Of a stretch of 13,125 nucleotides of DNA, positions 114 through 13,109 are shown one piece after another; position 1 is the first letter of the stretch, and every line of letters starts with the position of its first letter. Below the pieces are notes generated by a model. It did no database searches, was not told the DNA's origin, and worked only from the letters and a program-made list of their open reading frames with translations. This stretch comes from Eubacteriales bacterium (GTDB lineage Bacteria > Bacillota > Clostridia > Saccharofermentanales > UBA5734), in the NCBI GenBank assembly GCA_028685755.1, contig JAQUDJ010000009.1, forward strand, positions 36,549-49,673, in the 5' to 3' direction. A program made the translations under genes and the position numbers.

Positions 114-632
114 ATGAAAAATGTAAGATTAAGTCTCGCTCTTGTCCTTATAGCCCTACTCGTCGCCGGTATCGGTTCTGCTGCTTTAAGTGTCATTAGC
201 CTCGACCGATCAGTCGAAGCTGGCGTTGTCCGCTCAGATGTTGATGCGGATGTGGCTGTCCAATTTGCTGCCCTCGGCAGTTATGGCGACAATGGTTTTG
301 TCAGTGTAGATGCCACCACCGGTGAAATTGCCTTTGATTTGAAAAAGGCTGTTTCCAATTCAGCTAATGGCGGCTGGAACACCGATGCCCATTTTGTTGT
401 CGGCAGTGCTGCTAACGGTGTCTTTGAAGTCGCCAATAATTCGGACGTTGCAGTAAAAGTTTCTTTAACGGGCGCAACGGGTGGTTTGACTCTAAAAGAT
501 TCATCAGGTGCAGCGGCTGGCTCAAGCGTCATCGAAGCAGGTAGCGCAGACTCATTCTACTTTGATATTGCGACAGCCGGTGTCAACAAAGCGACTGCAA
601 TCGGCGGAACGCTTGCAGTGCGGAATGCCTAA
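114..632 (+). CDS. Small secreted protein; putative TasA/DUF1102-like fibre subunit and substrate of the adjacent SipW-type peptidase
   Basis: GGAGA at 100-104 lies 9 nt upstream of the ATG. The N-terminus has K/R residues, then a hydrophobic h-region (LALVLIALLVAGIG) and small residues SAA. A conserved LSVISLDRSVEAGVVRSD segment follows. The mature part is rich in A/G/V/S/D with no Cys and looks beta-rich. It sits immediately upstream of a SipW-type signal peptidase. Family assignment is inference from motif and context only. Confidence 0.7.
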   Translation: MKNVRLSLALVLIALLVAGIGSAALSVISLDRSVEAGVVRSDVDADVAVQFAALGSYGDNGFVSVDATTGEIAFDLKKAVSNSANGGWNTDAHFVVGSAANGVFEVANNSDVAVKVSLTGATGGLTLKDSSGAAAGSSVIEAGSADSFYFDIATAGVNKATAIGGTLAVRNA

Positions 633-658
633 TACATAGGATTTAATCAGGACAGCAT

Positions 659-1762
659 ATGAAGAACATCCTGACTGGCGTGCTCATTGGTTTGATCATC
701 ATCTTGGCCGGATTCGGCCTCGTGGCGGCGACCAATGGCACGCCTTTCTTGACTTATGTGTATTCGGACAGCATGTCCCCCTTGATTGATGTCAACGATG
801 CTTTTTTAATCTGGCCAACAGGTCATTACGAAATCGGCGATGTCATCACCTATCGACCCAAGACATTACCTGCAACGTATATCACGCATCGAATTGTCGG
901 AAAGAATGAACGCGGCTTTCTGACTCAAGGCGATCATGCTCCTTATCAAGACCAACGTGTCGGGGAACCGCCGATCAGCGATGCGCAAATTGCCGGCGAA
1001 GTACTTTCTTTATATGGCCAACCACTAATTATTCCGCAATTAGGCACCCTCGCCGCAGGGATTGGTCAAGGTCTTGGCCCTTCGTCATCGTGGGTTGCGA
1101 TACTCCTCATCGCCGCGGGGATCATCAGCCTGATTTGGAATCGAATCATACCCTCTAAAAAGAAAAAAACGCGACTGCGCTGGCGCTTGCGCCATCTTTA
1201 CCGTCTGGTTGGCGTGATTGCAACGGTGTTAATTTTGACTAGCGTATTGGTTCTTTCTCAGGTGACTCAAGTTCGTTATCTAGTCAGTGAAAAGCCCAGT
1301 CAAGTTGTCAATCGCGTCCTGTTGAATCACCCGGGCGAACTTTCAATGACCGTGCGCAACCAGGGACTCTGGCCAGTGTGGCTCGAAGTTGCTGGAACGG
1401 GTGACACCGTTGCGACAAAAGCGAGCCGGATTGTCTGGCCGTACCAAGAGACAAAGGTCACGTTAATGGTTCCTGCTGAATCATCGACTGGCTGGTACCA
1501 ACGCTATCTACACATCAATCAATACCCGATACTTTTCCCAGAGGGGATACTCCGTTTGTTTTACCAGTTTTCGCCGGTCGCAGCATTAGTGGCCACCCTT
1601 GCAGCTTTCTGGCTCTGGTATCGAGCTTGGATCGGCTTAATCAGTCGCATTCACGGCCTTGAAGGCTGGATACCACTGAAAACCTTCCGCGATAAAATAG
1701 CGGCTCGACGTTGGCGTAATCTTCGCCGTCGGCTGATCAGCAAAAAGGAGCGTACGCTATAA
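659..1762 (+). CDS. Signal peptidase I, SipW/ER/archaeal type (S26B-like), with a ~200-aa C-terminal extension (two extra TM helices plus an ecto domain)
   Basis: There is an N-terminal TM helix. SDSMSP carries the candidate catalytic Ser (S38, nt 770-772). ITHRIV carries the candidate catalytic His (H77, nt 887-889), which is the Ser/His type rather than the Ser/Lys LepB type. TQGDHAPYQD resembles the conserved GDxN...D box. A second TM spans aa ~143-164. A poly-basic loop (KKKKTRLRWRLRHLYR) follows, then TM3, a ~100-aa predicted extracytoplasmic segment, TM4 and a basic tail. AGGA at 649-652 is the RBS. Confidence 0.85.
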   Translation: MKNILTGVLIGLIIILAGFGLVAATNGTPFLTYVYSDSMSPLIDVNDAFLIWPTGHYEIGDVITYRPKTLPATYITHRIVGKNERGFLTQGDHAPYQDQRVGEPPISDAQIAGEVLSLYGQPLIIPQLGTLAAGIGQGLGPSSSWVAILLIAAGIISLIWNRIIPSKKKKTRLRWRLRHLYRLVGVIATVLILTSVLVLSQVTQVRYLVSEKPSQVVNRVLLNHPGELSMTVRNQGLWPVWLEVAGTGDTVATKASRIVWPYQETKVTLMVPAESSTGWYQRYLHINQYPILFPEGILRLFYQFSPVAALVATLAAFWLWYRAWIGLISRIHGLEGWIPLKTFRDKIAARRWRNLRRRLISKKERTL

Positions 1763-2298
1763 TGCGTTTAAGAATCTCATTGATTTTGATCATATTAGGC
1801 CTCCTCGTCGCGCTTCTGCCATTGACGACAAGCGGTGCTATCAGCTTACTGACCGTTGACCGCTCGATTGGTGGCAACCTCACGCTTGCCGATTTACCGG
1901 GTCTAGTCGAATTACAAAACTTCGACAATCAGACATATCAGCTCACGAGTAGTTACAAAACGGTCGGGACTATAATTAACAACGCATCCCAAACCATGAA
2001 AATTAAAATGACGACAACGCTTGACGACAGTCAGATTACCAACACAAAATGGCAAATCAATGTGCGCGCAAACGGCGGCACCGCATTAACCTTTTCGCGA
2101 AGTGATAATTTGACCCAAACCACTAAGGAATTTCAAATCACTGCTGGATCCTCAAAAAGGATTGAAGCCAAAGAGAATTCAAGTGTTAATGGACAGTCTA
2201 TCGCTACCTATTCCTTTGCGATCATCAGTGCAGATGGTACTTATACCCAGACCTTAGCGGATAGTTCTAGCAATCCAATCCGACATATATTTAAATAA
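1762..2298 (+). CDS. Second small secreted protein, N-terminally paralogous to 114-632; putative minor, initiator or anchor subunit
   Basis: The ATG overlaps the peptidase TAA (TAATG at 1760-1764). AGGAG lies at 1746-1750. The signal peptide is MRLRISLILIILGLLVALLPLTTSGA, followed by ISLLTVDRSIGGNLTLAD, which aligns with the post-signal segment of the first ORF. The mature part is rich in T/S/N/Q and has no Cys. Confidence 0.7.
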   Translation: MRLRISLILIILGLLVALLPLTTSGAISLLTVDRSIGGNLTLADLPGLVELQNFDNQTYQLTSSYKTVGTIINNASQTMKIKMTTTLDDSQITNTKWQINVRANGGTALTFSRSDNLTQTTKEFQITAGSSKRIEAKENSSVNGQSIATYSFAIISADGTYTQTLADSSSNPIRHIFK

Positions 2299-2359
2299 AA
2301 CAAATAAATGAATCACAATTTGTCATTGCAGAAATTGGTCATAACAGAAGAGGAAGTGC

Positions 2360-3862
2360 ATGAAAATCATGAAGACAAAACAAATCATTCAAAAATCAAG
2401 GACGGGCTTGATTCTAATCTTACTTATTGCGAGTTTGCTTTGGACTGGCTTCATGAATTTCCCCACAAATCCGACCGCACTTGAATCAACCGTCCCAGCG
2501 GATGAAATTCTGACCTACGCACCTGAATACGACATTCAAGCAGGGCGGTCATTAATGATTTGGAAACAGGGAACCAGCTTGGAGCAGGGGCGCACGGCAT
2601 ATTTCTATGCGGCCGATCCAATTCTCACCCTAACACCTTCTTTTTCATTGACAGGCCAGGTTGCGAGTGAGTTGTCTGGAACGGTCCAAATACAAACATA
2701 TTTGCAGGCTGTTGATGACAACCATCAGCTCTATTGGAGCTATCCGCTAATCAATTCGGTTGCGCAACCTGTTAAACTGACTCATGCAATCGAAGGCCAA
2801 AACGATTTGCTTCAATTATCGGCCCGACCTTTTGCGATTCGGGTAAGCCAAGCCTTTGCCCAATTACAAGCTATCAACACCGAGCTTGACCTGACCAATG
2901 CCAATTTCGAGCTCGTTGTGCGGTCTTTTGTGAATCTGGATGGGCAATCCGATGGTCAGGTTATCGCCAAGCAGTTTATCAATGAATTGCCGATTTCCTT
3001 ACAAACGATTGGCTTTACACTACCTAAAACAGCAGATAATTTGTCGCAAATTATCCTGAAAAGCGCGCCGGTCAAGCCAACTGGATTAGCAGCTTGGACC
3101 ACCACCCCGGAAAAAATCGCTGCGCTCTTCTTAGATGGTCTATTGCTGGCGGCACTCATCTTATCGATGGTCATCAACCGGCCACGTCAGAAGGACCGGG
3201 CATTAGATCATCAGAAATTTCGAGAATGGATTACGGAGGGCAGTGTCAGTCTGCATAACAGCTCGCCGATCCAAGTCAATTCCTTAGAAGGCCTTGTTGA
3301 CTTAGCGATTGATCTCGACAAACGCGTGTTATACGACCCATCACGCCAAAAATATTTTGTCCCAGATGAAGGGATGCTCTATCTATATGACCCAAATCAG
3401 CTCAATCCATCACAGATCAAGCGCACACAACTCGGGCGGCTCCTGCTCGATGCAGGTGTTATCAGCCGTGAGCAGCTTGAGACGGCACTGTTTTATCATC
3501 AGCGGTTAAATGTACCGTTAGGTGAATCACTGATTGCATTGGGCTTTATCGAAGAAAAAAACCTGTACCAAACGTTGGCTGCCCAGGCCAAACTGCTGTA
3601 TCTCGACGCCGAGCCAGAAGATTTCCGGGTCGATACTGACGCGCTGGCGCGTCTTACAGTCAAGCAGGCGCAAATCTTACGTGTCTTGCCACTTCAACGG
3701 CAACAAGACGAAAAATTACGACTGATTTGCAGTGATCCCGGGCGCATCAAAATAAAAAATGCCCTTGAAGAAATTATCGAATCTGAAATTGAACTCGTAA
3801 TTGTCAATCCATCTGTTTTGCAGGTGGCACTCGATAAAATAAATGCCAAAACCCAAAGCTAA
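2360..3862 (+). CDS. Bitopic membrane protein: N-terminal TM, ~215-aa ectodomain, second TM, and a cytoplasmic T2SSE_N/MshEN-like domain
   Basis: GAGGA at 2350-2354 lies 5 nt before the ATG. TM1 is aa ~15-35 and TM2 is aa ~252-272 (IAALFLDGLLLAALILSMVIN), followed by RPRQKDR (positive-inside). The C-terminal ~140 aa matches the GspE/MshE N-terminal domain pattern: tandem LGxxLLxxG..L...L..Q motifs, then LPLQRQQDEKLRLICSDP, resembling the usual 'lPl...g..l.va.sdP'. The N-terminal two-TM module resembles, from memory, the DUF5305 family often found beside SipW-type peptidases; this is unverified. Confidence 0.8.
   Translation: MKIMKTKQIIQKSRTGLILILLIASLLWTGFMNFPTNPTALESTVPADEILTYAPEYDIQAGRSLMIWKQGTSLEQGRTAYFYAADPILTLTPSFSLTGQVASELSGTVQIQTYLQAVDDNHQLYWSYPLINSVAQPVKLTHAIEGQNDLLQLSARPFAIRVSQAFAQLQAINTELDLTNANFELVVRSFVNLDGQSDGQVIAKQFINELPISLQTIGFTLPKTADNLSQIILKSAPVKPTGLAAWTTTPEKIAALFLDGLLLAALILSMVINRPRQKDRALDHQKFREWITEGSVSLHNSSPIQVNSLEGLVDLAIDLDKRVLYDPSRQKYFVPDEGMLYLYDPNQLNPSQIKRTQLGRLLLDAGVISREQLETALFYHQRLNVPLGESLIALGFIEEKNLYQTLAAQAKLLYLDAEPEDFRVDTDALARLTVKQAQILRVLPLQRQQDEKLRLICSDPGRIKIKNALEEIIESEIELVIVNPSVLQVALDKINAKTQS
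3428..3586 (+). other. Tandem MshEN-type 24-aa motifs with a 5-aa spacer (candidate c-di-GMP binding site) inside CDS 2360-3862
   Basis: Motif 1 (aa 357-380) is QLGRLLLDAGVISREQLETALFYH. The spacer is QRLNV. Motif 2 (aa 386-409) is PLGESLIALGFIEEKNLYQTLAAQ. The published consensus is RLGxx[LVI][LVI]xxG[LVI][LVI]xxxxLxxxLxxQ. Deviations: the leading Arg is Gln in motif 1 and Pro in motif 2; the final Q of motif 1 is H; and one F sits at an LVI position. Confidence 0.65.
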
Positions 3863-5055
3863 TCTACTTCGACTTCAACGGGAATACTTGGGATTGGCAC
3901 GAGAATATCAACGTCAGCAGCGTAATCAACACCAGGCATTTGGAAACCAAACATCTGGTAAAAATCTTCCCAATAGCCGGTGATGTCGCAGTATTCTGTG
4001 ACATTTTCGGTTCTTACATTCGGCCAGATGTTATCAACTGCCTGTTGAATGGCAGGCTCCATTTCCCAGTCATCGACGCGGAGTCGGCCGGCTTCATCCA
4101 CGATCGGATTTTCAACAAACAACTTATCCTGATAAAGGCGAGCAATTTGTTCAATGCAGCCCTCGTGTGTTCCGGCGGCTTTCATAACCTTGTACAGAAT
4201 TGAAATATAAAGCGGGACAACCGGAATGGCGGCACTCGCTTGAGTCACAAGGGCCTTGTTCACGGAAATATATGCGGTGACATGTTGCATGTCACGGGTC
4301 ATTTTTTGCGCAGTCGCATGAAGGTGTTCTTTGGCGCGGCCAATCGAACCCTTGAGGTAGATCGGATGCGTCAGTTCTGGTCCAAGGTAGGAGTAGGCCA
4401 TGGTTACTGTGTGATCAGCCAAACAACCAGCTTGATCAAGGGCAACAACCCAATCCTGCCAATCTTCACCCCCCATGACTTTCACAGTAGCTTCGATTTC
4501 TTCAGGAGACGCCGCGGAAATGCTGACCATCGAAATGGAGTTATCCTTGAGATCGATTGAACGATTGGTATATTCACCATCCGTTGATTTGAGTACCGAA
4601 TTGTAAATCGTACCGTCAGCCATCGTCCGCCGAGGGGAAGCCAAGCTATAGACGATTAGGTCTACTTGACCGAGATCTTGCTTGATCAGATTGATCACTT
4701 GATCTTTGACTTCTTGGGAGAACGCATCGCCATTGATTGTTTTGGCGTAAAGGCCTTCTTGGTTGGCGCGTTGTTCAAATGCTGCTGAATTATACCAGCC
4801 AGCAGATGCTGTACGATTACCAGAGGCCGGTTTATCAAAGATAACGCCGATTGTTGCAGCGCCACAGGAAAAGGCGGAAGTAATGCGGGAGGCTAAACCA
4901 TAGCCAGTCGAAGCACCGAGGACGAGGACTTTTTTTGGGCCATCGACTTTAGGTTGCGCGAGAACATAATCGATCTGGCGGTTAACATTGGCGGCACAAC
5001 CGACCGGGTGTGCGGTGATGCAGATAAAGCCACGGGTTTTTGGTTCAACAATCAT
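3859..5055 (-). CDS. fabV: FabV-type enoyl-[acyl-carrier-protein] reductase / trans-2-enoyl-CoA reductase (NADH), Ter family
   Basis: The 398-aa protein starts MIVEPKTRGFICITAHPVGC, with the nucleotide-binding motif VLGASTGYGLASRI. The Y-x8-K catalytic spacing is present in IYLKGSIGRAKEHL. Length and both termini are typical of the FabV/Ter family. GGAGGA (plus-strand tcctcc at 5064-5069) lies 8 nt upstream of the ATG. Confidence 0.9.
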   Translation of the reverse strand: MIVEPKTRGFICITAHPVGCAANVNRQIDYVLAQPKVDGPKKVLVLGASTGYGLASRITSAFSCGAATIGVIFDKPASGNRTASAGWYNSAAFEQRANQEGLYAKTINGDAFSQEVKDQVINLIKQDLGQVDLIVYSLASPRRTMADGTIYNSVLKSTDGEYTNRSIDLKDNSISMVSISAASPEEIEATVKVMGGEDWQDWVVALDQAGCLADHTVTMAYSYLGPELTHPIYLKGSIGRAKEHLHATAQKMTRDMQHVTAYISVNKALVTQASAAIPVVPLYISILYKVMKAAGTHEGCIEQIARLYQDKLFVENPIVDEAGRLRVDDWEMEPAIQQAVDNIWPNVRTENVTEYCDITGYWEDFYQMFGFQMPGVDYAADVDILVPIPSIPVEVEVD

Positions 5056-5084
5056 CTGGAATGTCCTCCATTAATCTCCACACT

Positions 5085-5112
5085 ATAATAACAAAAAGTC
5101 CTGCTTTGACAA
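5085..5112 (-). promoter_or_regulatory. Candidate sigma-A-type promoter for fabV
   Basis: On the minus strand, -35 TTGTCA is at plus 5107-5112, followed by a 16-nt spacer and -10 TATTAT at plus 5085-5090. This leaves a short leader containing the GGAGGA RBS. The call rests on motifs only. Confidence 0.35.
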
Positions 5113-5128
5113 GTTCAGAGCCCTGTTG

Positions 5129-5137
5129 TGCTAAAAT
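5129..5137 (+). promoter_or_regulatory. Candidate extended -10 element (TGcTAAAAT) for the ABC operon
   Basis: TG at 5129-5130 is followed by c and then TAAAAT at 5132-5137. The TTGACA at 5106-5111 is 20 nt upstream, too far for a canonical -35. If real, this promoter would depend on the extended -10. The leader to the ATG at 5247 would be about 100 nt. Confidence 0.3.
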
Positions 5138-5246
5138 TAACTTAATTCACGGAACTTTCAGGTGATTATTGACGTCTATCTAAACAATCAACGTTCATGA
5201 CACCTGCGGATTTTCAAAGTATGCCGATCGGAGTCCTACTGACACC

Positions 5247-6206
5247 ATGACTAGGCGCAACCCATTGCGAAACCTGCCAGCTTTAGCCAAAGGTAAATTA
5301 TCAGCACTTTGGATAATGCTCCGCGATAAACTGCGCCGCGATTGGCCTGCGGTTCTGTTTTTGACCCCCAGTATGATTGGCACCGGATTGTTTTTCTTTA
5401 TTCCCTTTATATTAGTCATCGGCTACTCGCTCGTTGATAATCCTGTCATGATGCGTTTTGTTTTTTTGCGCAACTATGTCGATCTCCTCACAAATCAGGC
5501 CTATTTACAGGCAGCAGGCAACACCTTGCTTTTTTCACTGATTAGCTTGCCACTTGTCGTGGTTATGTCCTTATTGCTCGCGATGCTGCTGAACGGAAAA
5601 CTCAAAGCCAAAAGTGCTTTGCGGTCACTTTTTCTATCGCCCCTGCTTGTGCCAGTAGCGTCGGTTGTGCTTGTTTGGCAAGTTGTGTTTAGTTATCATG
5701 GCGCTTTAAATTCAACACTATCCGGCTGGACGTGGCTCGTTGACTCGGGTTGGCTACCGGTCGATTGGCTCAAAAGCAGCAATGCGCGATACGTGATCAT
5801 TGGACTCTATTTGTGGAAAAATCTTGGCTATAACATGGTGCTTTTTCTCGCTGCATTAAACAATGTCCCGTCCCACTTAACTGATTCGGCGCGGGTCGAT
5901 GGCGCAACTGCTTGGCAACGTTTTATGAGCATAACGCTGCGATTCATCACGCCGACCTTGTTATTTACGACGATCATATCCTTTATCAACTCATTCAAAG
6001 TTTTCCGAGAAACTTATTTGTTAGCGGGTGATTACCCCTACGATGTGCTCTATATGCTCCAACATTTTATGAACAACATGTTCCGCTCACTCGATTATCA
6101 GAAATTATCCGCTGCGGCGATTGTCATGGCCCTTGTCATGATTGGGATCATAGGCGCTTTGTTTATCGTTGAAACCCGATCGGGCAAAGATCTGGAGGAC
6201 AACTGA
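5247..6206 (+). CDS. Carbohydrate (CUT1-type) ABC transporter permease, MalF/UgpA-like
   Basis: The N-terminus WPAVLFLTPSMIGTGLFFFIPF is typical of this family. There are six predicted TM segments. The EAA loop is DSARVDGATAWQRFMSITLRFITP. The start is uncertain because the weak GGAG lies 13 nt upstream; an internal Met at aa 24 is an alternative. Confidence 0.88.
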   Translation: MTRRNPLRNLPALAKGKLSALWIMLRDKLRRDWPAVLFLTPSMIGTGLFFFIPFILVIGYSLVDNPVMMRFVFLRNYVDLLTNQAYLQAAGNTLLFSLISLPLVVVMSLLLAMLLNGKLKAKSALRSLFLSPLLVPVASVVLVWQVVFSYHGALNSTLSGWTWLVDSGWLPVDWLKSSNARYVIIGLYLWKNLGYNMVLFLAALNNVPSHLTDSARVDGATAWQRFMSITLRFITPTLLFTTIISFINSFKVFRETYLLAGDYPYDVLYMLQHFMNNMFRSLDYQKLSAAAIVMALVMIGIIGALFIVETRSGKDLEDN

Positions 6207-7129
6207 TGCATCCCGCAAACAAGTGGCGCCGCGCCAAACGCGAAACACCAATCTATCTCAAAACCGGCTTAATCCTAATCCTCGCACTGATCTTTGTTTT
6301 TCCAATCGTGATGACCATTCTCAATTCATTCATGTCATCGGATGAGATTGTCGCCAATTACGGCATGCTTTTCGACAAAAACACAGATCCCTGGGCGATG
6401 CCCACCGCGCCTGAATTGCCCTGGATTTCGCCATCTGCCCACTTTAAACTGATCCCAGACCTCGTATCCGTGCAACAATATGTTGAGATTCTTTTTAAAA
6501 GTACAGATTATTTGATTAAATTCTGGAACTCCGTTTTTCTGGTGCTTCCGATAGTCGCCGGGCAGATATTTATAGGTGCGCTTGCGGCTTATGGGTTCAC
6601 TCGCTTCCGTGGTCGGATTGCCCAACTGATTTTCTTTTCGTACATCATATTGATGTTGATGCCCTTTCAGGTCACACTCGTGCCCAATTATTTAGTTGCA
6701 GAATGGTTTGGTCTGCTTGACAACCCACTATCGATCATCCTGCCAGGCGTTTTCTCGACATTTAGTGTCTTTTTGCTGACCAAATACATGCGCCGGATCC
6801 CACGTGATTATTTAGAAGTTGCTCAACTCGATGGTGCCGGCCATTGGGCCATTTTCACCCAAATCATGCTGCCGATGTGTAAAACCGCCCTCTATTCCTT
6901 GGCGGTACTCGTGTTTATTGATTACTGGAACATGGTTGAGCAACCGATAATTTTCTTATCCGATCCGCTCAAGCATCCGTTGTCTGTCTTTCTCGTTAAA
7001 GTCAATGAAGGCGATATTGGTCTAGCCTTTGCGGCATCCACACTTTACATGATACCGGCGCTCCTCATGTTCTTTCATGGTGAACAGTACCTCGTTGAGG
7101 GCATTACACATTCTGGTTTGAAAGGATAA
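6206..7129 (+). CDS. Carbohydrate (CUT1-type) ABC transporter permease, MalG/UgpE-like
   Basis: The start overlaps the upstream stop by 1 nt (TGATG). GGAGGA lies at 6194-6199. The EAA loop is EVAQLDGAGHWAIFTQIMLPMCKTAL, and the N-terminus FVFPIVMTILNSF is typical. The first extracytoplasmic loop is enlarged (aa ~45-105). Confidence 0.88.
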   Translation: MHPANKWRRAKRETPIYLKTGLILILALIFVFPIVMTILNSFMSSDEIVANYGMLFDKNTDPWAMPTAPELPWISPSAHFKLIPDLVSVQQYVEILFKSTDYLIKFWNSVFLVLPIVAGQIFIGALAAYGFTRFRGRIAQLIFFSYIILMLMPFQVTLVPNYLVAEWFGLLDNPLSIILPGVFSTFSVFLLTKYMRRIPRDYLEVAQLDGAGHWAIFTQIMLPMCKTALYSLAVLVFIDYWNMVEQPIIFLSDPLKHPLSVFLVKVNEGDIGLAFAASTLYMIPALLMFFHGEQYLVEGITHSGLKG

Positions 7130-7132
7130 CCC

Positions 7133-8719
7133 ATGGACGATTATACACCGACAAAAGCAAGCCCCCGCACGCGCCTTGTCAGGCGTGCTACGGTCATTTT
7201 TTTTAGTGGCATGGCGGCGCTGACCTTGTTCTCCAATACAATTGTCAATTACTCCTTGCCGCGCGTACAGGTTAAAAATTTTGAATCAGGGATCATCTCG
7301 CGCCAAATTCAGACCGACGGTACAGTTGCCGCCTCATTACAACACACGATCAATTTCGGTGCGGCGCGGACTGTCGAAAAGGTCAATGTCGAAGTGGGGT
7401 CACCGGTCTTAGTTGGGGATGTGCTCGCGACCTTGAAAGCAACCGATGGATTAGAACTTTTGGAGATGGAAAAGGCATATGAAAATGCCCAGATCGATCT
7501 CGCGCGCATGAAAGAAACGGCGGCGACGACATCCGTCCCAGCCGCGGAAAAAGCAATCCAAGCCGCGGAAAAAGCGATCGCGGTCGCGTTGAAAACAATC
7601 ACTCGGAATGAGGAAGCTATTGTTGACGCAAAAGAAGCATTAGATACGGCTTGGGATGATCTTAAACAAGCGGCTGAGGATGCTGAAGACGATTTAAATG
7701 ATGCCCAAGACCTTCAAGAAGAAAAAGAAGATCTTTTAGTGGCCGCCCAACTGGCTCTGGACACAACAACAGAAACGCCGGGTACCACTGCATACATCGC
7801 GCTACAAGACGCAGTGACAGCTGCTGAACTTGCCCTTGAAGATGCGCAAGATTCAGTCGATTCATTCGAAAAAATCTTAGCTGATGCAAAAAAGGCTCGA
7901 GATCGAGGTCCGACAAGCTTTGAAGATAGTGTCGTTTTAGCCGAAGAAGCGTTAGTTGCTGCAAAAGAAGCACACATAGAAACTGTAGCTGCGCTTGCCC
8001 AAGCTCAACTTGATCTCACTGCGGCCAAGAAAACAGACGCACAGACCGCGAAAGATCGCACACGTGAGATCACCAAAGCAGAGAATAATCTGACCATTCA
8101 GAAGAAGAAACTTGATCAATTCAAATCAACGCAAGATGTCACTGAAATCAAGGCTGATTATGCTGGTCGCATTTCCAAATTGACGCTATCTGCTGGTGGC
8201 GTCATTAATCCGGCTGAAGCGATTGTGACGATTGATGCTGCCGACGCTAAATATGAATTGCGCGCCACACTGCCAATCGAGCAGGCAAAGGTACTTGTCA
8301 TCGGCGATCGTGCCGATGTGATGATGGGTAATATGGGCTGGGCGCAAGCTGTCTTGCGCGAAGTCCGTGAAGACAAAGATCAGCCAGGGATCGTTAAGCA
8401 GCTAATCTTTGATATTGATGGCGAGGTTACACTCGGCCAACAGGTTACGTTAAGTATTTATAAAATGAGTCGGCAGTACGATATCATCGTGCCCAATGCC
8501 GCGGTTCGTCAAGACGCGAATGGCAGCTTTATCCTCGTGATGAAGCAAAAAAATGGTCCACTCGGCAGCCGTTTCACTTTAGAGCGAGTCAGTGCAACCG
8601 TGCTCGAATCAGATAGCACGCGTGCTGCAGTCAGTGCAACAATTGACTATGGAACACCTCTCGTGACAGCCGCCAATAAGCCGGTAGAAGCCGGCAGTCG
8701 CGTTTTGCCAACCAAATGA
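7133..8719 (+). CDS. HlyD-family membrane-fusion protein (periplasmic adaptor subunit) with an exceptionally long coiled-coil hairpin
   Basis: AGGA lies at 7123-7126. There is an N-terminal TM (VIFFSGMAALTLFSNTIV). The lipoyl half-motifs are VEVGSPVLVGDVLATL and ADYAGRISKLTLSAGGVINPAEAIVTI. About 240 aa (aa ~100-345) are A/E/D/K/L-rich and heptad-like. The C-terminal beta-barrel/MP-type segments include IIVPNAAVRQDANGSFILVMK and LVTAANKPVEAGSRV. Confidence 0.85.
   Translation: MDDYTPTKASPRTRLVRRATVIFFSGMAALTLFSNTIVNYSLPRVQVKNFESGIISRQIQTDGTVAASLQHTINFGAARTVEKVNVEVGSPVLVGDVLATLKATDGLELLEMEKAYENAQIDLARMKETAATTSVPAAEKAIQAAEKAIAVALKTITRNEEAIVDAKEALDTAWDDLKQAAEDAEDDLNDAQDLQEEKEDLLVAAQLALDTTTETPGTTAYIALQDAVTAAELALEDAQDSVDSFEKILADAKKARDRGPTSFEDSVVLAEEALVAAKEAHIETVAALAQAQLDLTAAKKTDAQTAKDRTREITKAENNLTIQKKKLDQFKSTQDVTEIKADYAGRISKLTLSAGGVINPAEAIVTIDAADAKYELRATLPIEQAKVLVIGDRADVMMGNMGWAQAVLREVREDKDQPGIVKQLIFDIDGEVTLGQQVTLSIYKMSRQYDIIVPNAAVRQDANGSFILVMKQKNGPLGSRFTLERVSATVLESDSTRAAVSATIDYGTPLVTAANKPVEAGSRVLPTK
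7541..7582 (+). repeat. Tandem 2 x 21-nt direct repeat inside the MFP coiled coil (AAEKAIQ / AAEKAIA)
   Basis: gccgcggaaaaagcaatccaa (7541-7561) is followed by gccgcggaaaaagcgatcgcg (7562-7582). The first 18 nt differ at one position. The period of 21 nt equals one heptad. Confidence 0.8.
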
Positions 8720-10083
8720 AACGACTTGCGCTGCTCGCAGCTGTGCTTTGGACAACGACCGCCTTGTTGACCCAGGCGCTTGTGTTTACTGCACAGGGCC
8801 TCCTTTCAGAAACCACGCGCGACAATCAGGTCAAGACTTTTGCCGTCTATTTAGCGAAACCGGTGCCAAGCAATTCGGGTTCAACAGCCGGTTTTATTGC
8901 TGGATCAACAGCAGCCAAAGTGGCTGCTGCAGGCTTTACGAGCGATAGTGGGATCGGTTTGCAAGCGCGGGCAGTCGAAAGCATGCGACAATCTCTCAAG
9001 AAAGCGATTGCTGAACAACAAGTGCAAATAGTCGATGCATTTGCGGGCTTTTCTGAACAAGTGCTGACACGCGTTTCAATGGACAATCAAAGCAACGGCA
9101 CGATCACGGTGAATCTCACCGGAATCGGTGGGCGATTTGCCGATTTTCGCCAATTGCAGATTTTAAGTGGTTCGTTTATCAATGAACAAGATTGGAATGA
9201 ACGGTCAATCGTTCTCGATGAAACCGCGGCTTGGCAATTGTTTGGGGCGATCGATATTGCGGGTATGACGTTATCGATCCAGAACCACAATTACACCGTC
9301 AATGGAGTCGTGCGAATCCCTCAAAACGATCAGAATTTACTCGCTATCGCTGAGAAACCGCAAGCCTTTGTCAGTTATGCGGCGCTACACGCGCTAGATC
9401 CCCAATCGAGCATCACGGCATATGAGGTCAGACTGCCTGAACCAGTACCCGGTATGGGTCAAAGTTATTTTAATGATGCACTCAATGCCGGAGGGCTCAA
9501 CCCTAATGATGCGATCATCGTTCTGCACGAACAGCGTTTAACCTTCACCCACTTACTGGCAGATTGGGCAAAGATCGGGCGCCGAGCCATACAAGATTCG
9601 ACCATTGTCTTGCCCTGGTGGGAAAATGCGAACCGGGCTGCCGCTGATTGGGCTAGTGTGCTCATCGCCATATCAGGCATGGCGTTGCTTTTGCTGGGTT
9701 TAAGTGTTTCCAACTTGACTTGGCGGGAACAAAAAGTTCGACCAGCTCGTCCAATATGTTGGACACAAATCGGACAATTGAGCGCCGCCAGTCTGTTCGG
9801 CCTCGTGCTAGCGATGATTTTGATCCATGTGCACGGCGAGCTTGTTCCAAGTGGTTGGTCTTGGTTTTTCACCTTGCTTGGGATTTTACTTTTGCCTGCA
9901 GCACTCGTTACTGGTTTCGGAGGATTTCAGAAACTTCGAATCGTGTTACCAGATAAGACGCGTAGCCTTCAGGTTTTGCGATCAACCAGTCAATCTATAA
10001 CCGAAAAGACCCGTATTTACATACTTGTTTGGATCAAATGGCTGAAGTCGCACTGGCCAGCCACAAAGGAGACCCCCTTATGA
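8716..10083 (+). CDS. MacB-periplasmic-domain / FtsX-like ABC permease homologue with a divergent C-terminal TM bundle
   Basis: An ATGA overlap joins it to the MFP stop. It has an N-terminal TM and an A/G/S-rich linker. The MacB_PCD-like core is ITVNLTGIGGRFADFRQLQILSGSFINEQDWNERSIVLDETAAWQLFGAIDIAGMTLSIQNHNYTVNGVVR. Three C-terminal TM helices follow in FtsX-like topology, but the usual ER.rEIG..(K/R)alGA loop is not recognisable. No SD precedes the start, so translational coupling is presumed. Confidence 0.6.
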   Translation: MKRLALLAAVLWTTTALLTQALVFTAQGLLSETTRDNQVKTFAVYLAKPVPSNSGSTAGFIAGSTAAKVAAAGFTSDSGIGLQARAVESMRQSLKKAIAEQQVQIVDAFAGFSEQVLTRVSMDNQSNGTITVNLTGIGGRFADFRQLQILSGSFINEQDWNERSIVLDETAAWQLFGAIDIAGMTLSIQNHNYTVNGVVRIPQNDQNLLAIAEKPQAFVSYAALHALDPQSSITAYEVRLPEPVPGMGQSYFNDALNAGGLNPNDAIIVLHEQRLTFTHLLADWAKIGRRAIQDSTIVLPWWENANRAAADWASVLIAISGMALLLLGLSVSNLTWREQKVRPARPICWTQIGQLSAASLFGLVLAMILIHVHGELVPSGWSWFFTLLGILLLPAALVTGFGGFQKLRIVLPDKTRSLQVLRSTSQSITEKTRIYILVWIKWLKSHWPATKETPL

Positions 10084-12449
10084 ACACCCGTATGATTCAA
10101 AACCATTCCGTTATCGGTGAACCGAAAATGAAACGGCAACCGCTCCGATCATTAGCGCTGTTGCTAGTGATTACCCTGACCTTTGCGCTCCTGCTCCCTC
10201 TGACCGCGTGTGCCAAAAAACCAGCACTTGATCTTGGACTTGATCAAGTCGCAATCTATGATGCAGCTGAATATACGATTGGCGAACAATTTAACTATGT
10301 GCAAAATATGATTTGGTCCAATAACGAGATCATCGCCATGGCCATGGATGCGCAAGGCATGACGAGTTTAGTGCGGCTTAGCACCGACGGCCAGATACTC
10401 GGCAACATTTCACTAGCCCAGATTAAGAATTTACCAACCACCGAAAATATGGGCTCATCGGCATCGCTCGATGGTTTTTTTGCAGGACCCAATGGTAGCC
10501 TGATCGTGACGGTCACAGATTATAGCGACCCCGCAGCAACTGTGCGCACGCTTTACCAAATCGATTCAAATGGCACGATACTCAAGAGCTATCCAATCTT
10601 TACCGCAAAAAATGATGGCAGTACGACTGACTATGTGCAGAATTTAATTGTCGATGCACAAGGTCAAGTTTTACTTGTCTTTGGCACTCGCGTGGAATTA
10701 CTTGACACAAACGGCCAAAAAATCGGCGAATATAAATTAGACGGTCCCTATGTCGCGCTTGCGATGTTTATGCCCAATGGCCATCTCAGCCTAAGCTATT
10801 ACGAAAATGAAGGCGGCATGAGTTCAATCGAAGTTGATTTAAAAACTGGCACAAAAATTGCGGACATCAGCGTCTTGTCACAGTTTTTTAACACGCAGCC
10901 CCAACTCGGGAGCGATGGTCAGTATTATTTGAACGGTTATCAATATCTCTCCCGCTATGATGCTGCAACGAATGAAGTCGTCAAAATCATGAGCTGGCTC
11001 GACTTTGATCTCAATCGCAACAATCTCAGTTATTACTGGGTTGCTGCTCCGGATGGCAGCTTTTATTTCAGTGAATTCATTTACCCAGAAAGCAGCTTGC
11101 CAGACCCCAACACGGGAATGTACCCCAATCCAACCTTTAAGCTCGTCAAATTAACAAAGTCTGCTGACCAAACGGCGGCTAAAAAGACAACTATATCCAT
11201 CGGGGCATTCTGGATCAATGAAAGCCTGCGCAAAGCAATTATCGAATTTAGAAAAACCCACCCGGATGTTCGATTTACCATTTACGATTATTCAGATGGA
11301 ATTGATTACTCTAAAACGACAGCCTTTGATGATGCCATCGCGAGGATTAATGCGGATATTATCGCTGGAAAAATGCCAGATATGATGGTCACCAACTCAC
11401 TGCCGTGGAAAAACTACGCGAGTAAAGGCTTGTTTGATGACCTTGGCGCGCGGATGGACAAAGACAAGGATTTTGACCAAAGCCTCTTTTTGACGAATCT
11501 AATCGATGCGCAAAAGCTCAATGGCAAACTCTATTCACTCAGCAGTACAGCAGCACTAACCGGCATCATCGCATCACGCAATGTGGTTGGCGATCGGACA
11601 AGCTGGACCGTGCAAGACTTTCAAAATATCGTTGATCAGCAACCTGATCAGAAAAATGTCTTCTATCAAATGCCTGGCGAATCCATTCTCAGCATGCTTT
11701 TGATGGGCAATCTCGACGCTTTCATTGATAAGGAAGCCGGCAAGGCGAATTTTGACAGCCCTGAATTTATCCAATTACTAGAATTTGCCCAAAAATATGG
11801 TGTGCCACAAGATCAAATGGTCTATCAGGAAGGCGATGGCATGAATGCCGGCGAATATATTCCACCGGTCATTCAAACAACTTATATCAGTCGTTTTGAA
11901 GACTACGCAATGAATGTTCAACAGTTCCAGGGCAATGCCGTGATCCTCGGTTATCCATCACCGAAGCAAACGGGACCGATGCTACAAGTCAGCGCCCCTT
12001 TGGCGGTTGCTGCCAATAGTCGCAACAAAGAATTGATCTGGGAATTCATCAAATTTACGCTCAGCGAAGACATGCAGGATCAGGCAATCAAAAACTATGA
12101 GGGTTTTCCACTCTTGCGAGCAAGTCTTGAAAAAGCTGGAGCTCAAGCGATTATCGACACACAAAAGCAGTGGGAAGAACAGCAGAAACAAGAACAACAA
12201 GCAGGTGTTCAACCCATGGATGAATTGGCAAAAAGTTCAATCTGGTACGGGGTCTCACGTGTGACGCAGGCCGATGTCGACTACGTCATCGGCATATTGA
12301 ACCAAGCTGATACCGTACTCAGTTATGATGAGAAAGCCAACCAATTGATTTATGAAGAATCCACACCATTCTTTGCAGGTGACAAAACAGCAGCGGAGAC
12401 TGCTGCATCGATTCAAAGCCGCCTCAAAGCCTATATTGGCGAACAATAA
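10080..12449 (+). CDS. Large lipoprotein: N-terminal beta-propeller-like repeat module fused to a family-1 extracellular solute-binding domain (carbohydrate ABC SBP)
   Basis: The preferred start is the ATG at 10080 (ATGA overlap with the upstream stop; AAGGAG at 10066-10071, 8 nt upstream). The ORF-track start at 10029 lacks an RBS. The ATG at 10128 (MKRQPLRSLALLLVITLTFALLLPLTAC) is an alternative. The lipobox is L-T-A-C, with Cys at nt 10209-10211. The C-terminal half has SBP_bac_1-like features: DVRFTIYDY, GKMPDMMV, ASKGLFDDLG, LNGKLYSLS. Confidence 0.85.
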   Translation: MNTRMIQNHSVIGEPKMKRQPLRSLALLLVITLTFALLLPLTACAKKPALDLGLDQVAIYDAAEYTIGEQFNYVQNMIWSNNEIIAMAMDAQGMTSLVRLSTDGQILGNISLAQIKNLPTTENMGSSASLDGFFAGPNGSLIVTVTDYSDPAATVRTLYQIDSNGTILKSYPIFTAKNDGSTTDYVQNLIVDAQGQVLLVFGTRVELLDTNGQKIGEYKLDGPYVALAMFMPNGHLSLSYYENEGGMSSIEVDLKTGTKIADISVLSQFFNTQPQLGSDGQYYLNGYQYLSRYDAATNEVVKIMSWLDFDLNRNNLSYYWVAAPDGSFYFSEFIYPESSLPDPNTGMYPNPTFKLVKLTKSADQTAAKKTTISIGAFWINESLRKAIIEFRKTHPDVRFTIYDYSDGIDYSKTTAFDDAIARINADIIAGKMPDMMVTNSLPWKNYASKGLFDDLGARMDKDKDFDQSLFLTNLIDAQKLNGKLYSLSSTAALTGIIASRNVVGDRTSWTVQDFQNIVDQQPDQKNVFYQMPGESILSMLLMGNLDAFIDKEAGKANFDSPEFIQLLEFAQKYGVPQDQMVYQEGDGMNAGEYIPPVIQTTYISRFEDYAMNVQQFQGNAVILGYPSPKQTGPMLQVSAPLAVAANSRNKELIWEFIKFTLSEDMQDQAIKNYEGFPLLRASLEKAGAQAIIDTQKQWEEQQKQEQQAGVQPMDELAKSSIWYGVSRVTQADVDYVIGILNQADTVLSYDEKANQLIYEESTPFFAGDKTAAETAASIQSRLKAYIGEQ

Positions 12450-12638: not shown

Positions 12639-13109
12639 ATGAAAATCGGGATCATTGTCTATTCTTACACAGGCAATACGTTTTCAGTCAGCGAAAAAAT
12701 CCGCACCAAGCTTGAACAAAAAGGGCACACCGTGGAAGTCAAACGGATCACTGCCAAGAACGACAATCCCAATACTCAACAAATGATTCAGTTGCTCGAC
12801 AACCCTTCGCTAGACGGTTACGACCGCGTAGTGCTCGGCACACCAGTGAATGGCTTTGCGCCCGCGGGTGTAATGCAAGAATTCTTAAAAAATCGCACAG
12901 ATTTAGCGCATCAAACCGTTGATCTTTTCGTGACACACTTTTTCCCGTTCCGATTTCTCGGCGGCAATCAATCCGTTGAACGAATGAGGCGCGATTGCCA
13001 AGCCAGTGGGGCGACGATTGGGCGCAGTGGCGTGATCAATTGGTCGAGTGCTAACCGCGAACGTGCTATCAATGCACTCGCCGAACAGTTTAGTTCCTTT
13101 GAGCTATAA
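12639..13109 (+). CDS. Flavodoxin-like fold protein (short-chain flavodoxin family)
   Basis: AGGAG at 12627-12631 lies 7 nt before the ATG. The N-terminus MKIGIIVYSYTGNT matches the flavodoxin FMN phosphate-loop signature pattern. The 156-aa length fits, with VVLGTPV as the second beta-strand motif. Confidence 0.8.
   Translation: MKIGIIVYSYTGNTFSVSEKIRTKLEQKGHTVEVKRITAKNDNPNTQQMIQLLDNPSLDGYDRVVLGTPVNGFAPAGVMQEFLKNRTDLAHQTVDLFVTHFFPFRFLGGNQSVERMRRDCQASGATIGRSGVINWSSANRERAINALAEQFSSFEL

Follow-up and report, generated by a model that had tools for sequence, protein, structure and literature searches.

A five-gene clostridial module in which importer-type permeases and a giant solute-binding lipoprotein accompany an HlyD/MacA-type adaptor and a MacB-type core domain protein

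Introduction

The ATP-binding cassette (ABC) importers of the CUT1 type that use a shared ATPase, such as MalFGK2-MalE, UgpAEC-UgpB and transporter B of Clostridium thermocellum with its ATPase Clo1313_2554, are the closest described relatives of one half of the system examined here, a module of five genes at positions 5247 to 12449 of a 13,125-nt stretch of contig JAQUDJ010000009.1 from an Eubacteriales bacterium (the whole stretch is called the window below). With these importers the module shares two PF00528 permeases bearing EAA motifs, a lipoprotein of the SBP_bac_1 family as solute-binding protein (SBP), and a cluster that holds no ATPase gene. It differs from them in that genes for a membrane fusion protein (MFP) and for a protein with the periplasmic core domain (PCD) of MacB are obligate members of the operon, that the SBP has roughly double the usual length and an extra N-terminal domain matching no family, that the permeases belong to a highly conserved subfamily of their own, and that neither a carbohydrate-active enzyme (CAZyme) nor a sugar regulator is encoded in the scanned flanks of the core module.

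The other half recalls the type VII mechanotransmission pumps MacAB(-TolC), Spr0693-0695 and YknXYZ, which likewise pair an MFP with a PCD held between two transmembrane (TM) helices. Unlike these pumps, the PCD family of the module lacks an FtsX domain, has no fused or adjacent nucleotide-binding domain (NBD) and mostly carries two TM helices, and its MFP-PCD pair always lies inside an importer operon. An outer-membrane partner is not expected in a Gram-positive cell. The long-hairpin adaptors of the HlyD/EmrA type resemble the module MFP in their single N-terminal TM helix, lipoyl and beta-barrel domains and long helical hairpin (for our protein, in a low-confidence model), whereas the module MFP is partnered with importer-type permeases and its hairpin is highly variable in length. 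To our knowledge, periplasmic adaptors and the MacB core domain are otherwise found only in exporters and mechanotransmission machines. A literature search returned no description of an MFP or a MacB-type PCD in a binding-protein-dependent importer, an absence that is not in itself proof. The component families are known; their combination in one importer module is, as far as we could find, not yet described.

A further relative is transporter C of C. thermocellum (Clo1313_2783-2786, or Cthe_2125-2128), which consists of two sugar permeases, a gene annotated as 'ATPase' and CbpC, the closest solved relative of the module SBP domain (PDB 7x0o). In the C. thermocellum cluster CbpC is followed by a second SBP and then two hypothetical proteins, and an 'acra' gene is named for the transporter clusters in the legend of Fig. 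1 in Yan et al. 2022 (PMC9601137). The same authors tried a set of sugars on CbpC by isothermal titration calorimetry and NMR and saw no binding, found an extra loop closing off its inter-domain pocket, and reported that inactivating transporter C left growth on glucose, cellobiose and Avicel unaffected (Yan et al. 2022, PMC9601137). At 438 aa CbpC differs from the module SBP in having no N-terminal domain. A CbpC-like locus in our collection (L022), a more distant version of the module, encodes a pair of normal-sized SBPs resembling CbpC, two permeases that share 43-48% identity with those of the window, an MFP and a MacB_PCD protein. We infer that gene 2785 encodes a coiled-coil MFP, and transporter C would then be a member of the module family. 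Nataf and colleagues are said, in a summary of their 2009 work, to have found that CbpC binds glucose and cellodextrin, which contradicts the 2022 result of Yan and colleagues.

Gene Content and Organization

The module consists of the following genes, named here for their products.

permF, 5247..6206, + strand: CUT1-type ABC importer permease, MalF/UgpA-like, 319 aa (PF00528)

permG, 6206..7129, + strand: CUT1-type ABC importer permease, MalG/UgpE-like, 307 aa (PF00528)

MFP, 7133..8719, + strand: membrane-anchored HlyD/MacA-type periplasmic adaptor, 528 aa (HlyD_3)

PCD protein, 8716..10083, + strand: membrane-anchored MacB-type periplasmic core domain protein, 455 aa (MacB_PCD)

Giant lipoprotein SBP, 10080 (or 10128)..12449, + strand: 789 aa from ATG 10080, 773 aa from ATG 10128 (SBP_bac_1)

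The ten largest open reading frames (ORFs) of the window were scanned against Pfam and NCBIfam. Matches to PF00528, HlyD_3, MacB_PCD and SBP_bac_1 agree with the gene content proposed in an earlier note on this DNA (two permeases, an MFP, a MacB-like protein and an SBP), save for the FtsX part that the note had given to the MacB-like protein, PF02687 being absent. PermF scores 48.4 bits and permG 53.4 bits with PF00528 (cut-off 26.4), and the best NCBIfam models are UgpA, GlcT and MalF for permF and GlcU, UgpE and MalG for permG, all under their equivalog cut-offs. An EAA-type coupling motif is present in permF (DSARVDGATAWQRF..ITP) as well as in permG (EVAQLDGAGHWAIF..MLP), which has six hydrophobic segments, and both motifs are conserved in the family alignment; an ABC ATPase is therefore expected to serve the pair. 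The SBP scores 37.2 bits with SBP_bac_1 (cut-off 26) over residues 382-666 in its C-terminal half, and with the PF00528 matches and EAA motifs this bears out the type I importer (MalF-like and MalG-like permeases with a solute-binding lipoprotein) that the note had described.

Reading the gene ends off the sequence confirmed the ORFs and the tight junctions reported before. PermF and permG overlap by 1 nt in TGATG at 6204-6208, with GGAGGA 7 nt 5' of the start; permG ends with TAA at 7127-7129 and is separated by ccc, a 3-nt gap, from the MFP start at ATG 7133, with AAAGGA upstream; the MFP and PCD genes share ATGA at 8716-8719, and the PCD and SBP genes share ATGA at 10080-10083, preceded by AAAGGAG at 10066-10072. 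A Shine-Dalgarno-like sequence is thus found 7 nt 5' of three of the four downstream starts. With the identities and operon-like coupling given here, the five genes probably form one functional unit. For the SBP, ATG 10080 has the better Shine-Dalgarno sequence, and the same 4-nt overlap appears in the gene calls of two syntenic relatives (L001 and L002), making this start plausible. The alternative, ATG 10128, opens a canonical lipoprotein signal (MKRQPL...LLPLTAC) with the lipobox LTAC at its end, and the mature protein is identical from either start.

Conservation across Genomes and Metagenomes

Conservation was examined from both sides of the module. A search seeded with the window PCD protein gave 14 informative genome loci, and repeating the homologue search with a wider alignment, within the limit of its word index, recovered nearly the same set of 17 proteins. 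The full module is present at 14 of 14 loci across PCD identities of 25-50%, in Oscillospiraceae, Mageeibacillus, Lachnospiraceae, Roseburia, Acetatifactor and other Clostridia. The syntenic relatives, metagenome-assembled genomes of Mageeibacillus and Oscillospiraceae whose PCD proteins are 43-50% identical to that of the window, keep all five genes in the order seen in the window. The distant loci of Lachnospiraceae, Roseburia, Acetatifactor and other Clostridia (PCD 26-34%, permeases 52-58% identical) also have all five genes, with the SBP gene either last or first.

From the permease side, at least 588 stretches of metagenomic DNA matched a profile of permG, and 80 of them were fetched as loci. 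Where the contig extended far enough, permF was found in 68/68, the MFP and the PCD protein each in 56/56, and one or more giant SBPs in 33/33. The module genes lie on one strand in all 80 loci, with median gaps of -4, 24, 10 and -15 nt. Because the gene order is shared by 14/14 genome and 56/56 metagenome loci, the co-occurrence of the five genes is far beyond chance and the association obligate. The same counts dispose of the possibility, allowed for in the earlier note, that the arrangement is unique to this genome. The module is widespread and abundant in Clostridia of the gut, rumen and digesters, including Roseburia and other Lachnospiraceae.

Sequence constraint differs markedly between the genes. 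PermF is 75-79% identical to its close relatives, 52-56% to its counterparts in the Lachnospiraceae modules and 43% to that of L022. PermG is the most conserved gene of the module, at 85-89% identity with close and 53-58% with distant relatives, and carries the family signatures MP[YF]QVTLVPNY and FIDYWNMVEQP. Compared with the same relative, permG is 89% identical, the adjacent FabV 78% and the PCD protein 47%. The permeases form a distinct subfamily under strong constraint.

The PCD Protein and the Missing ATPase

The fourth gene matches MacB_PCD (PF12704) at 43 bits against a cut-off of 27, and its profile matches MacB PCD structures in the PDB (E ~1e-8). An AlphaFold2 model of medium confidence (mean predicted local distance difference test score, pLDDT, 64.6) was compared by Foldseek and matched Spr0695, MacB, the YknZ PCD, LolE and YbbP. 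An NCBI entry 100% identical to the window protein carries the name "ABC transporter permease". FtsX (PF02687) gave no match at E<=5 in the four family members tested (those of the window, L022, L017 and L013) or in the C-terminal fragment of the window protein. Of the MacB_PCD/FtsX-like protein described earlier, the MacB_PCD part therefore stands and the FtsX part does not, and the gene 4 product is best taken as a genuine MacB-type PCD rather than a MacB permease.

An exhaustive profile search placed the family at about 1000 clusters at 50% identity, 663 of them at E<=1e-10, with members mostly of 340-400 aa. When 146 representatives of the 50%-identity clusters were examined for TM helices, 102 had the form TM1-PCD-TM2, with one hydrophobic segment on each side of the core domain, and the median length was 367 aa. 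In the distant homologues the protein ends after a single TM helix following a PWWEN motif. The window clade has TM1 and three poorly conserved C-terminal TM helices, and beyond its conserved LPWWEN motif there is poor conservation, with insertions and deletions in the would-be coupling loop. The family norm is thus an ectodomain protein of the TM1-PCD-TM2 type that would be unable to couple to an NBD. An alignment of the PCD family with a fused ABC_tran-FtsX protein from one metagenomic locus (L078) using hhalign gave no match, the template being one sequence. We also considered whether gene 4 might be a pseudogenised MacB and rejected this, the ORF being intact and the short form being kept in about 660 clusters.

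This topology changes how the lack of an ATPase is to be read. The note had described a MacB-type permease lacking its partner ATPase, a description that does not fit a family whose norm has neither an FtsX bundle nor a cytoplasmic coupling loop; given that norm, the paradox of the missing ATPase largely dissolves, and the absence of a MacB-type ATPase is intrinsic to the PCD family.

The observation that no nucleotide-binding subunit is present holds well beyond the window. None of its ten largest ORFs matches an ABC ATPase family in Pfam or NCBIfam. NBDs in the modules were sought by phmmer with five NBD queries and then by Pfam, which superseded an earlier scan for Walker A and LSGGQ motifs that had missed NBDs. 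No MsmK-type ATPase gene was found in or beside any module, and no MacB-type NBD within the module in any genome locus. In the 10 kb on each side of the syntenic loci L001 and L002, the NBDs found belong to separate BMP-type and ribose-type importers, so that no ATPase of a conventional MacAB system lies just outside the module there; the 56 metagenomic modules whose downstream sequence is complete supply one case, L078, where a 971-aa fused ABC_tran and FtsX protein of the MacB type is encoded at 11967-14882, 340 nt 3' of the PCD gene. Four further loci of one lineage (L074, L075, L090 and L101) have a pair of ABC_tran and ABC_tran_2 (PF16949) genes about 1 kb 3' of the PCD gene, which is probably an unrelated exporter, and L050 has a partial NBD ORF at the contig end behind a truncated PCD gene. 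Since no NBD of the module's own was found in the modules or within 10 kb of L001 and L002, the ATPase-less state is a property of the module and not an accident of the window edge.

The importer core presumably borrows a shared ATPase of the MsmK/MsmX type, as other CUT1 systems do. A precedent for energisation in trans is the CUT1 transporter B of C. thermocellum, which has no ATPase of its own and is served by the stand-alone Clo1313_2554 (PMC9601137).

The Adaptor and the Giant Binding Protein

The MFP matches HlyD_3 at 31.7 bits (cut-off 22.2), with HlyD_D23 and Biotin_lipoyl_2 below threshold and TIGR01730 (RND_mfp) at 44 bits, under its cut-off; its profile matches TriA/B, HlyD, LipC, MacA and EmrA in the PDB. 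The family has one N-terminal TM helix, a lipoyl half-domain, a coiled coil whose length differs greatly among relatives, and conserved beta-barrel and membrane-proximal regions, with sizes of 318-748 aa in metagenomic modules. The architecture is that of the periplasmic adaptors, with lipoyl and beta-barrel domains split by a helical hairpin and an N-terminal anchor, the hairpin being taken from a low-confidence fold prediction. That prediction was made from a single sequence (pLDDT 46), and its secondary structure alone was used; helices are predicted at residues 94-212 and 218-333, which would give a hairpin of roughly 115 residues per arm and an estimated 17 nm if it is canonical.

The most striking part of the MFP is its membrane segment. 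Residues 23-45 (about 7199-7267 of the window), with the pattern F..LTxFSNTIxNYSLPxV and its near-invariant juxtamembrane motif FSNTIxNYSLP, are almost invariant among relatives that are otherwise 26-27% identical, a conservation far above that of the TM helices of the PCD protein. This suggests fixed membrane partners, that is, that the MFP TM helix has one or more specific partners within the membrane. In 56 of 56 loci the energisable membrane partners encoded with the MFP are importer-type permeases alone, in place of the energised exporters (RND, MFS, or ABC exporter/MacB) with which adaptors of this superfamily work.

The SBP is an extracytoplasmic lipoprotein of the cluster-D type, and its lipobox cysteine is invariant across the family. 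The profile of its C-terminal domain matches CbpC (7x0o) in the PDB with an E value of 1.3e-32, followed by Lmo0181 and YesO, and AbnE-type binders are among the relatives. The extra N-terminal region of about 340 aa has repeated D/N-G-hydrophobic motifs and no PDB or Pfam match above noise; noise-level hints of the beta-propeller type (SdiA-regulated, arylsulfotransferase, SGL, GH62 and SBBP) had E values of at least 0.002. In metagenomic modules the SBP reaches up to 1082 aa.

Many modules have two, sometimes three, giant SBP genes, one 5' of permF and one 3' of the PCD gene (L032, L035-L037, L039, L042, L043, L045, L047 and L049 are among the loci with several), in line with the counts of 30 upstream and 17 downstream positions in the metagenomic set. 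Multiple SBP genes suggest several ligands or a structural role for the SBP.

Acetivibrio homologues of CbpC (78-86% identical; L019:8001-9380 and L024:2252-3447, one of them from A. straminisolvens) are orphan SBPs with no adjacent permeases. They adjoin DUF2089/DUF4097 genes, with a response regulator in L019 only. Such binders therefore exist outside transporter operons too.

Proposed Mechanism and Alternatives

We favour a reading in which the five genes encode one machine, an SBP-dependent importer core energised in trans and joined to an ATP-independent, wall-penetrating scaffold or funnel made of the MacA/MacB-derived MFP and PCD protein, and we put its probability at about 0.5. That the module is a single unit with no ATPase of its own and with a PCD-only protein is held with more confidence than the funnel role. 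PermF and permG would form the membrane translocator, with EAA loops that dock a shared MsmK/MsmX-type ATPase encoded elsewhere, and the giant lipoprotein SBP would capture the ligand and hand it over to the translocator. The MFP and PCD protein would derive from a MacA/MacB-type pair in which the PCD protein kept the membrane stalk and extracytoplasmic core; having lost the FtsX bundle and the ATPase-coupling loop, it would therefore not be an energised pump. It would most likely dimerise and seat the MFP ring as the PCD of MacB seats MacA. The two together would make an ATP-independent hollow scaffold with a coiled-coil hairpin, longer in some relatives than the length estimated here, that reaches into or through the Gram-positive wall. 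Its task would be to guide a ligand that is extended or lies close to the wall, or to keep it, beside the SBP and translocator. We infer the complex, its stoichiometry, the direction of uptake and what the ligand is, and a dietary glycan is only one option for it; uptake of a nutrient glycan is no more plausible than a role in the envelope.

As a passive conduit spanning the wall, the MFP-PCD pair would be to Gram-positive cells what outer-membrane uptake channels are to others. The module bears on how dominant Gram-positive commensals handle molecules at or beyond their thick wall. An adaptor and a MacB core domain would here be obligate, operon-internal partners of an importer, the PCD protein having shed the parts that use ATP. 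The module may also explain why transporter C and CbpC resisted assignment for more than a decade, perhaps having been treated as a plain sugar transporter.

Several observations weigh against the importer-and-funnel reading. An MFP ring seated on a PCD dimer would leave no obvious room for the SBP to dock on the same translocator. The length of the MFP hairpin is an estimate from a poor model (pLDDT 46). Foldseek aligns the whole chain of the window PCD protein to Spr0695, and this alignment and the three C-terminal TM helices may reflect a residual FtsX-like bundle in the window clade. The nearest solved SBP, CbpC, bound no sugar in the tests of Yan et al. and has an occluded pocket, and the knockout of its transporter grows normally, which by analogy would count against sugar uptake. 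Nothing in the neighbourhood points to a carbohydrate substrate; the flanks scanned around the core module hold housekeeping genes, phosphatases and kinases, and show no CAZyme or glycoside hydrolase, no catabolic gene and no sugar regulator. The large glycan that the earlier note proposed as substrate thus finds no backing in the gene context, the locus not obviously being one for glycan utilisation. An OmpR-type response regulator and a HAMP-HisKA kinase adjoin the module upstream, on either strand, in 11 loci, forming about five groups, out of the 37 whose upstream sequence exceeds 2.2 kb. Such a two-component system is unlike the usual regulator of a sugar operon, and it is linked to one subclade.

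The outward-acting history of adaptors and MacB core domains, which the fold matches agree with, speaks for a second account, importer-powered mechanotransmission, in which the ligand-loaded SBP triggers hydrolysis by the trans-acting ATPase and the motion of the translocator, passed on through the TM1/TM2 stalk of the PCD protein, drives extracytoplasmic work by the PCD protein and MFP. The work could be the expulsion or extraction of an envelope-associated molecule or remodelling of the wall, in the manner of MacB, LolCDE and FtsEX, which have ATPases of their own. The lack of catabolic and CAZyme genes in the scanned core-module flanks, the two-component systems just described, the ABC exporter genes beside some modules (L078 and the L074/L075/L090/L101 lineage), and the blocked CbpC pocket with no sugar ligand and no growth phenotype on transporter knockout all fit this account, and the extreme conservation of the permeases and of the MFP TM helix fits a tight intramembrane machine. 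However, a PCD driven by an importer of the type I fold is without precedent, the poorly conserved TM helices of the PCD protein argue against a precise force-transmitting interface, a lipoprotein SBP with EAA permeases is the canonical signature of uptake, and the evidence from neighbouring genes is confined to certain lineages, the clade of the window not among them. We regard this account as unlikely, if the best of the alternatives. The full claim, that an SBP-triggered type I ABC translocator with a borrowed ATPase drives a MacB-derived PCD/MFP assembly for outward or extracytoplasmic work, is quite doubtful; if true, it would add to the ABC machines a class of a new kind, one merging type I and type VII principles.

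The MFP-PCD pair might instead be an anchoring or assembly platform and not a conduit, setting the height of the giant SBP in the wall by way of its propeller-like N-domain and so widening the capture radius for a polymeric ligand. In keeping with this, no complete module lacks a giant SBP carrying the additional N-terminal domain (33/33), many modules have two, and the sizes of both MFP and SBP vary widely among lineages. The SBPs of L022 and CbpC itself are, on the other hand, of ordinary size (438-460 aa) without the N-domain, yet L022 keeps both MFP and PCD protein, and we think a platform of this kind rather improbable. Least of all do we credit two unrelated systems side by side, an ordinary sugar importer and a degenerate MacAB-like resistance pump with its MacB-type ATPase elsewhere: the fused ABC_tran-FtsX gene in one of 56 modules and the 1+3 TM topology and full-length Spr0695 alignment of the window PCD protein would suit it, but the MFP and PCD genes are enclosed by those of the permeases and the SBP, stop codons there overlap start codons, most family members lack a cytoplasmic loop for NBD binding, and the lack of an FtsX domain and the co-occurrence counts, which over very deep divergence are 56/56 when starting from the permease and 14/14 when starting from the PCD protein, leave it disfavoured as very improbable.

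Flanking Regions and Neighbouring Genes

The other features of the window are as follows.

5056..5246, + strand: intergenic region of 191 nt, presumed promoter and 5' untranslated region of the module, shared with the divergent FabV gene

3859-5055, - strand: FabV-type trans-2-enoyl reductase, upstream flank of the module

12639-13109, + strand: short flavodoxin, downstream flank of the module

114-3862, + strand: four-gene set of a 172-aa secreted protein, a SipW-like peptidase, a 178-aa secreted protein and a DUF5305 protein

659-1762, + strand: the SipW-like archaeal-type signal peptidase I of that set, with a long C-terminal membrane extension (TIGR02228, 61 bits, cut-off 51.9)

2360-3862, + strand: the DUF5305 protein of that set, with a C-terminal MshEN-type domain binding cyclic di-GMP (NF053729, 54 bits, cut-off 38)

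The module promoter presumably lies within 5056..5246, where no convincing sigma-70 consensus was seen on the + strand and the one strong match, at 5112-5085 on the - strand, points at FabV. An Rfam scan found no family at E<=1 and a tRNA scan of the window was also empty; there is therefore no riboswitch to hint at the ligand. No convincing terminator was seen downstream of the SBP gene, and the terminator-like matches inside genes are probably there by chance.

FabV (71-79% identical) and the flavodoxin also flank the module in relatives L001-L009 from Mageeibacillus and Oscillospiraceae, and the window clade thus shares local synteny past the limits of the module. The distant genome loci are flanked by housekeeping genes (AlaRS, EF-G, GroEL and PFL). 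The one CAZyme-type neighbour is a GH10 gene about 2.7 kb 3' of the more distant L022 version.

Neighbours of the phosphatase or kinase type recur across lineages, namely Inositol_P, Metallophos, a HAD Cof-type protein with a Mbeg1-like protein, and an FGGY kinase (L001:13798-16311, L002:13686-14489, L011:13237-15717, L018:6052-8520 and L016:1263-3188). They are a weak hint at a phosphorylated ligand or one containing glycerol or inositol. The loci with the two-component system are L063-L065, L070, L074-L076, L078, L090, L098 and L101, and the modules of this subclade end with the PCD gene. At the far end of the window, the four-gene set at 114-3862 resembles an operon for a fibre of the TasA/SipW style or a pilus-like structure, controlled by cyclic di-GMP.

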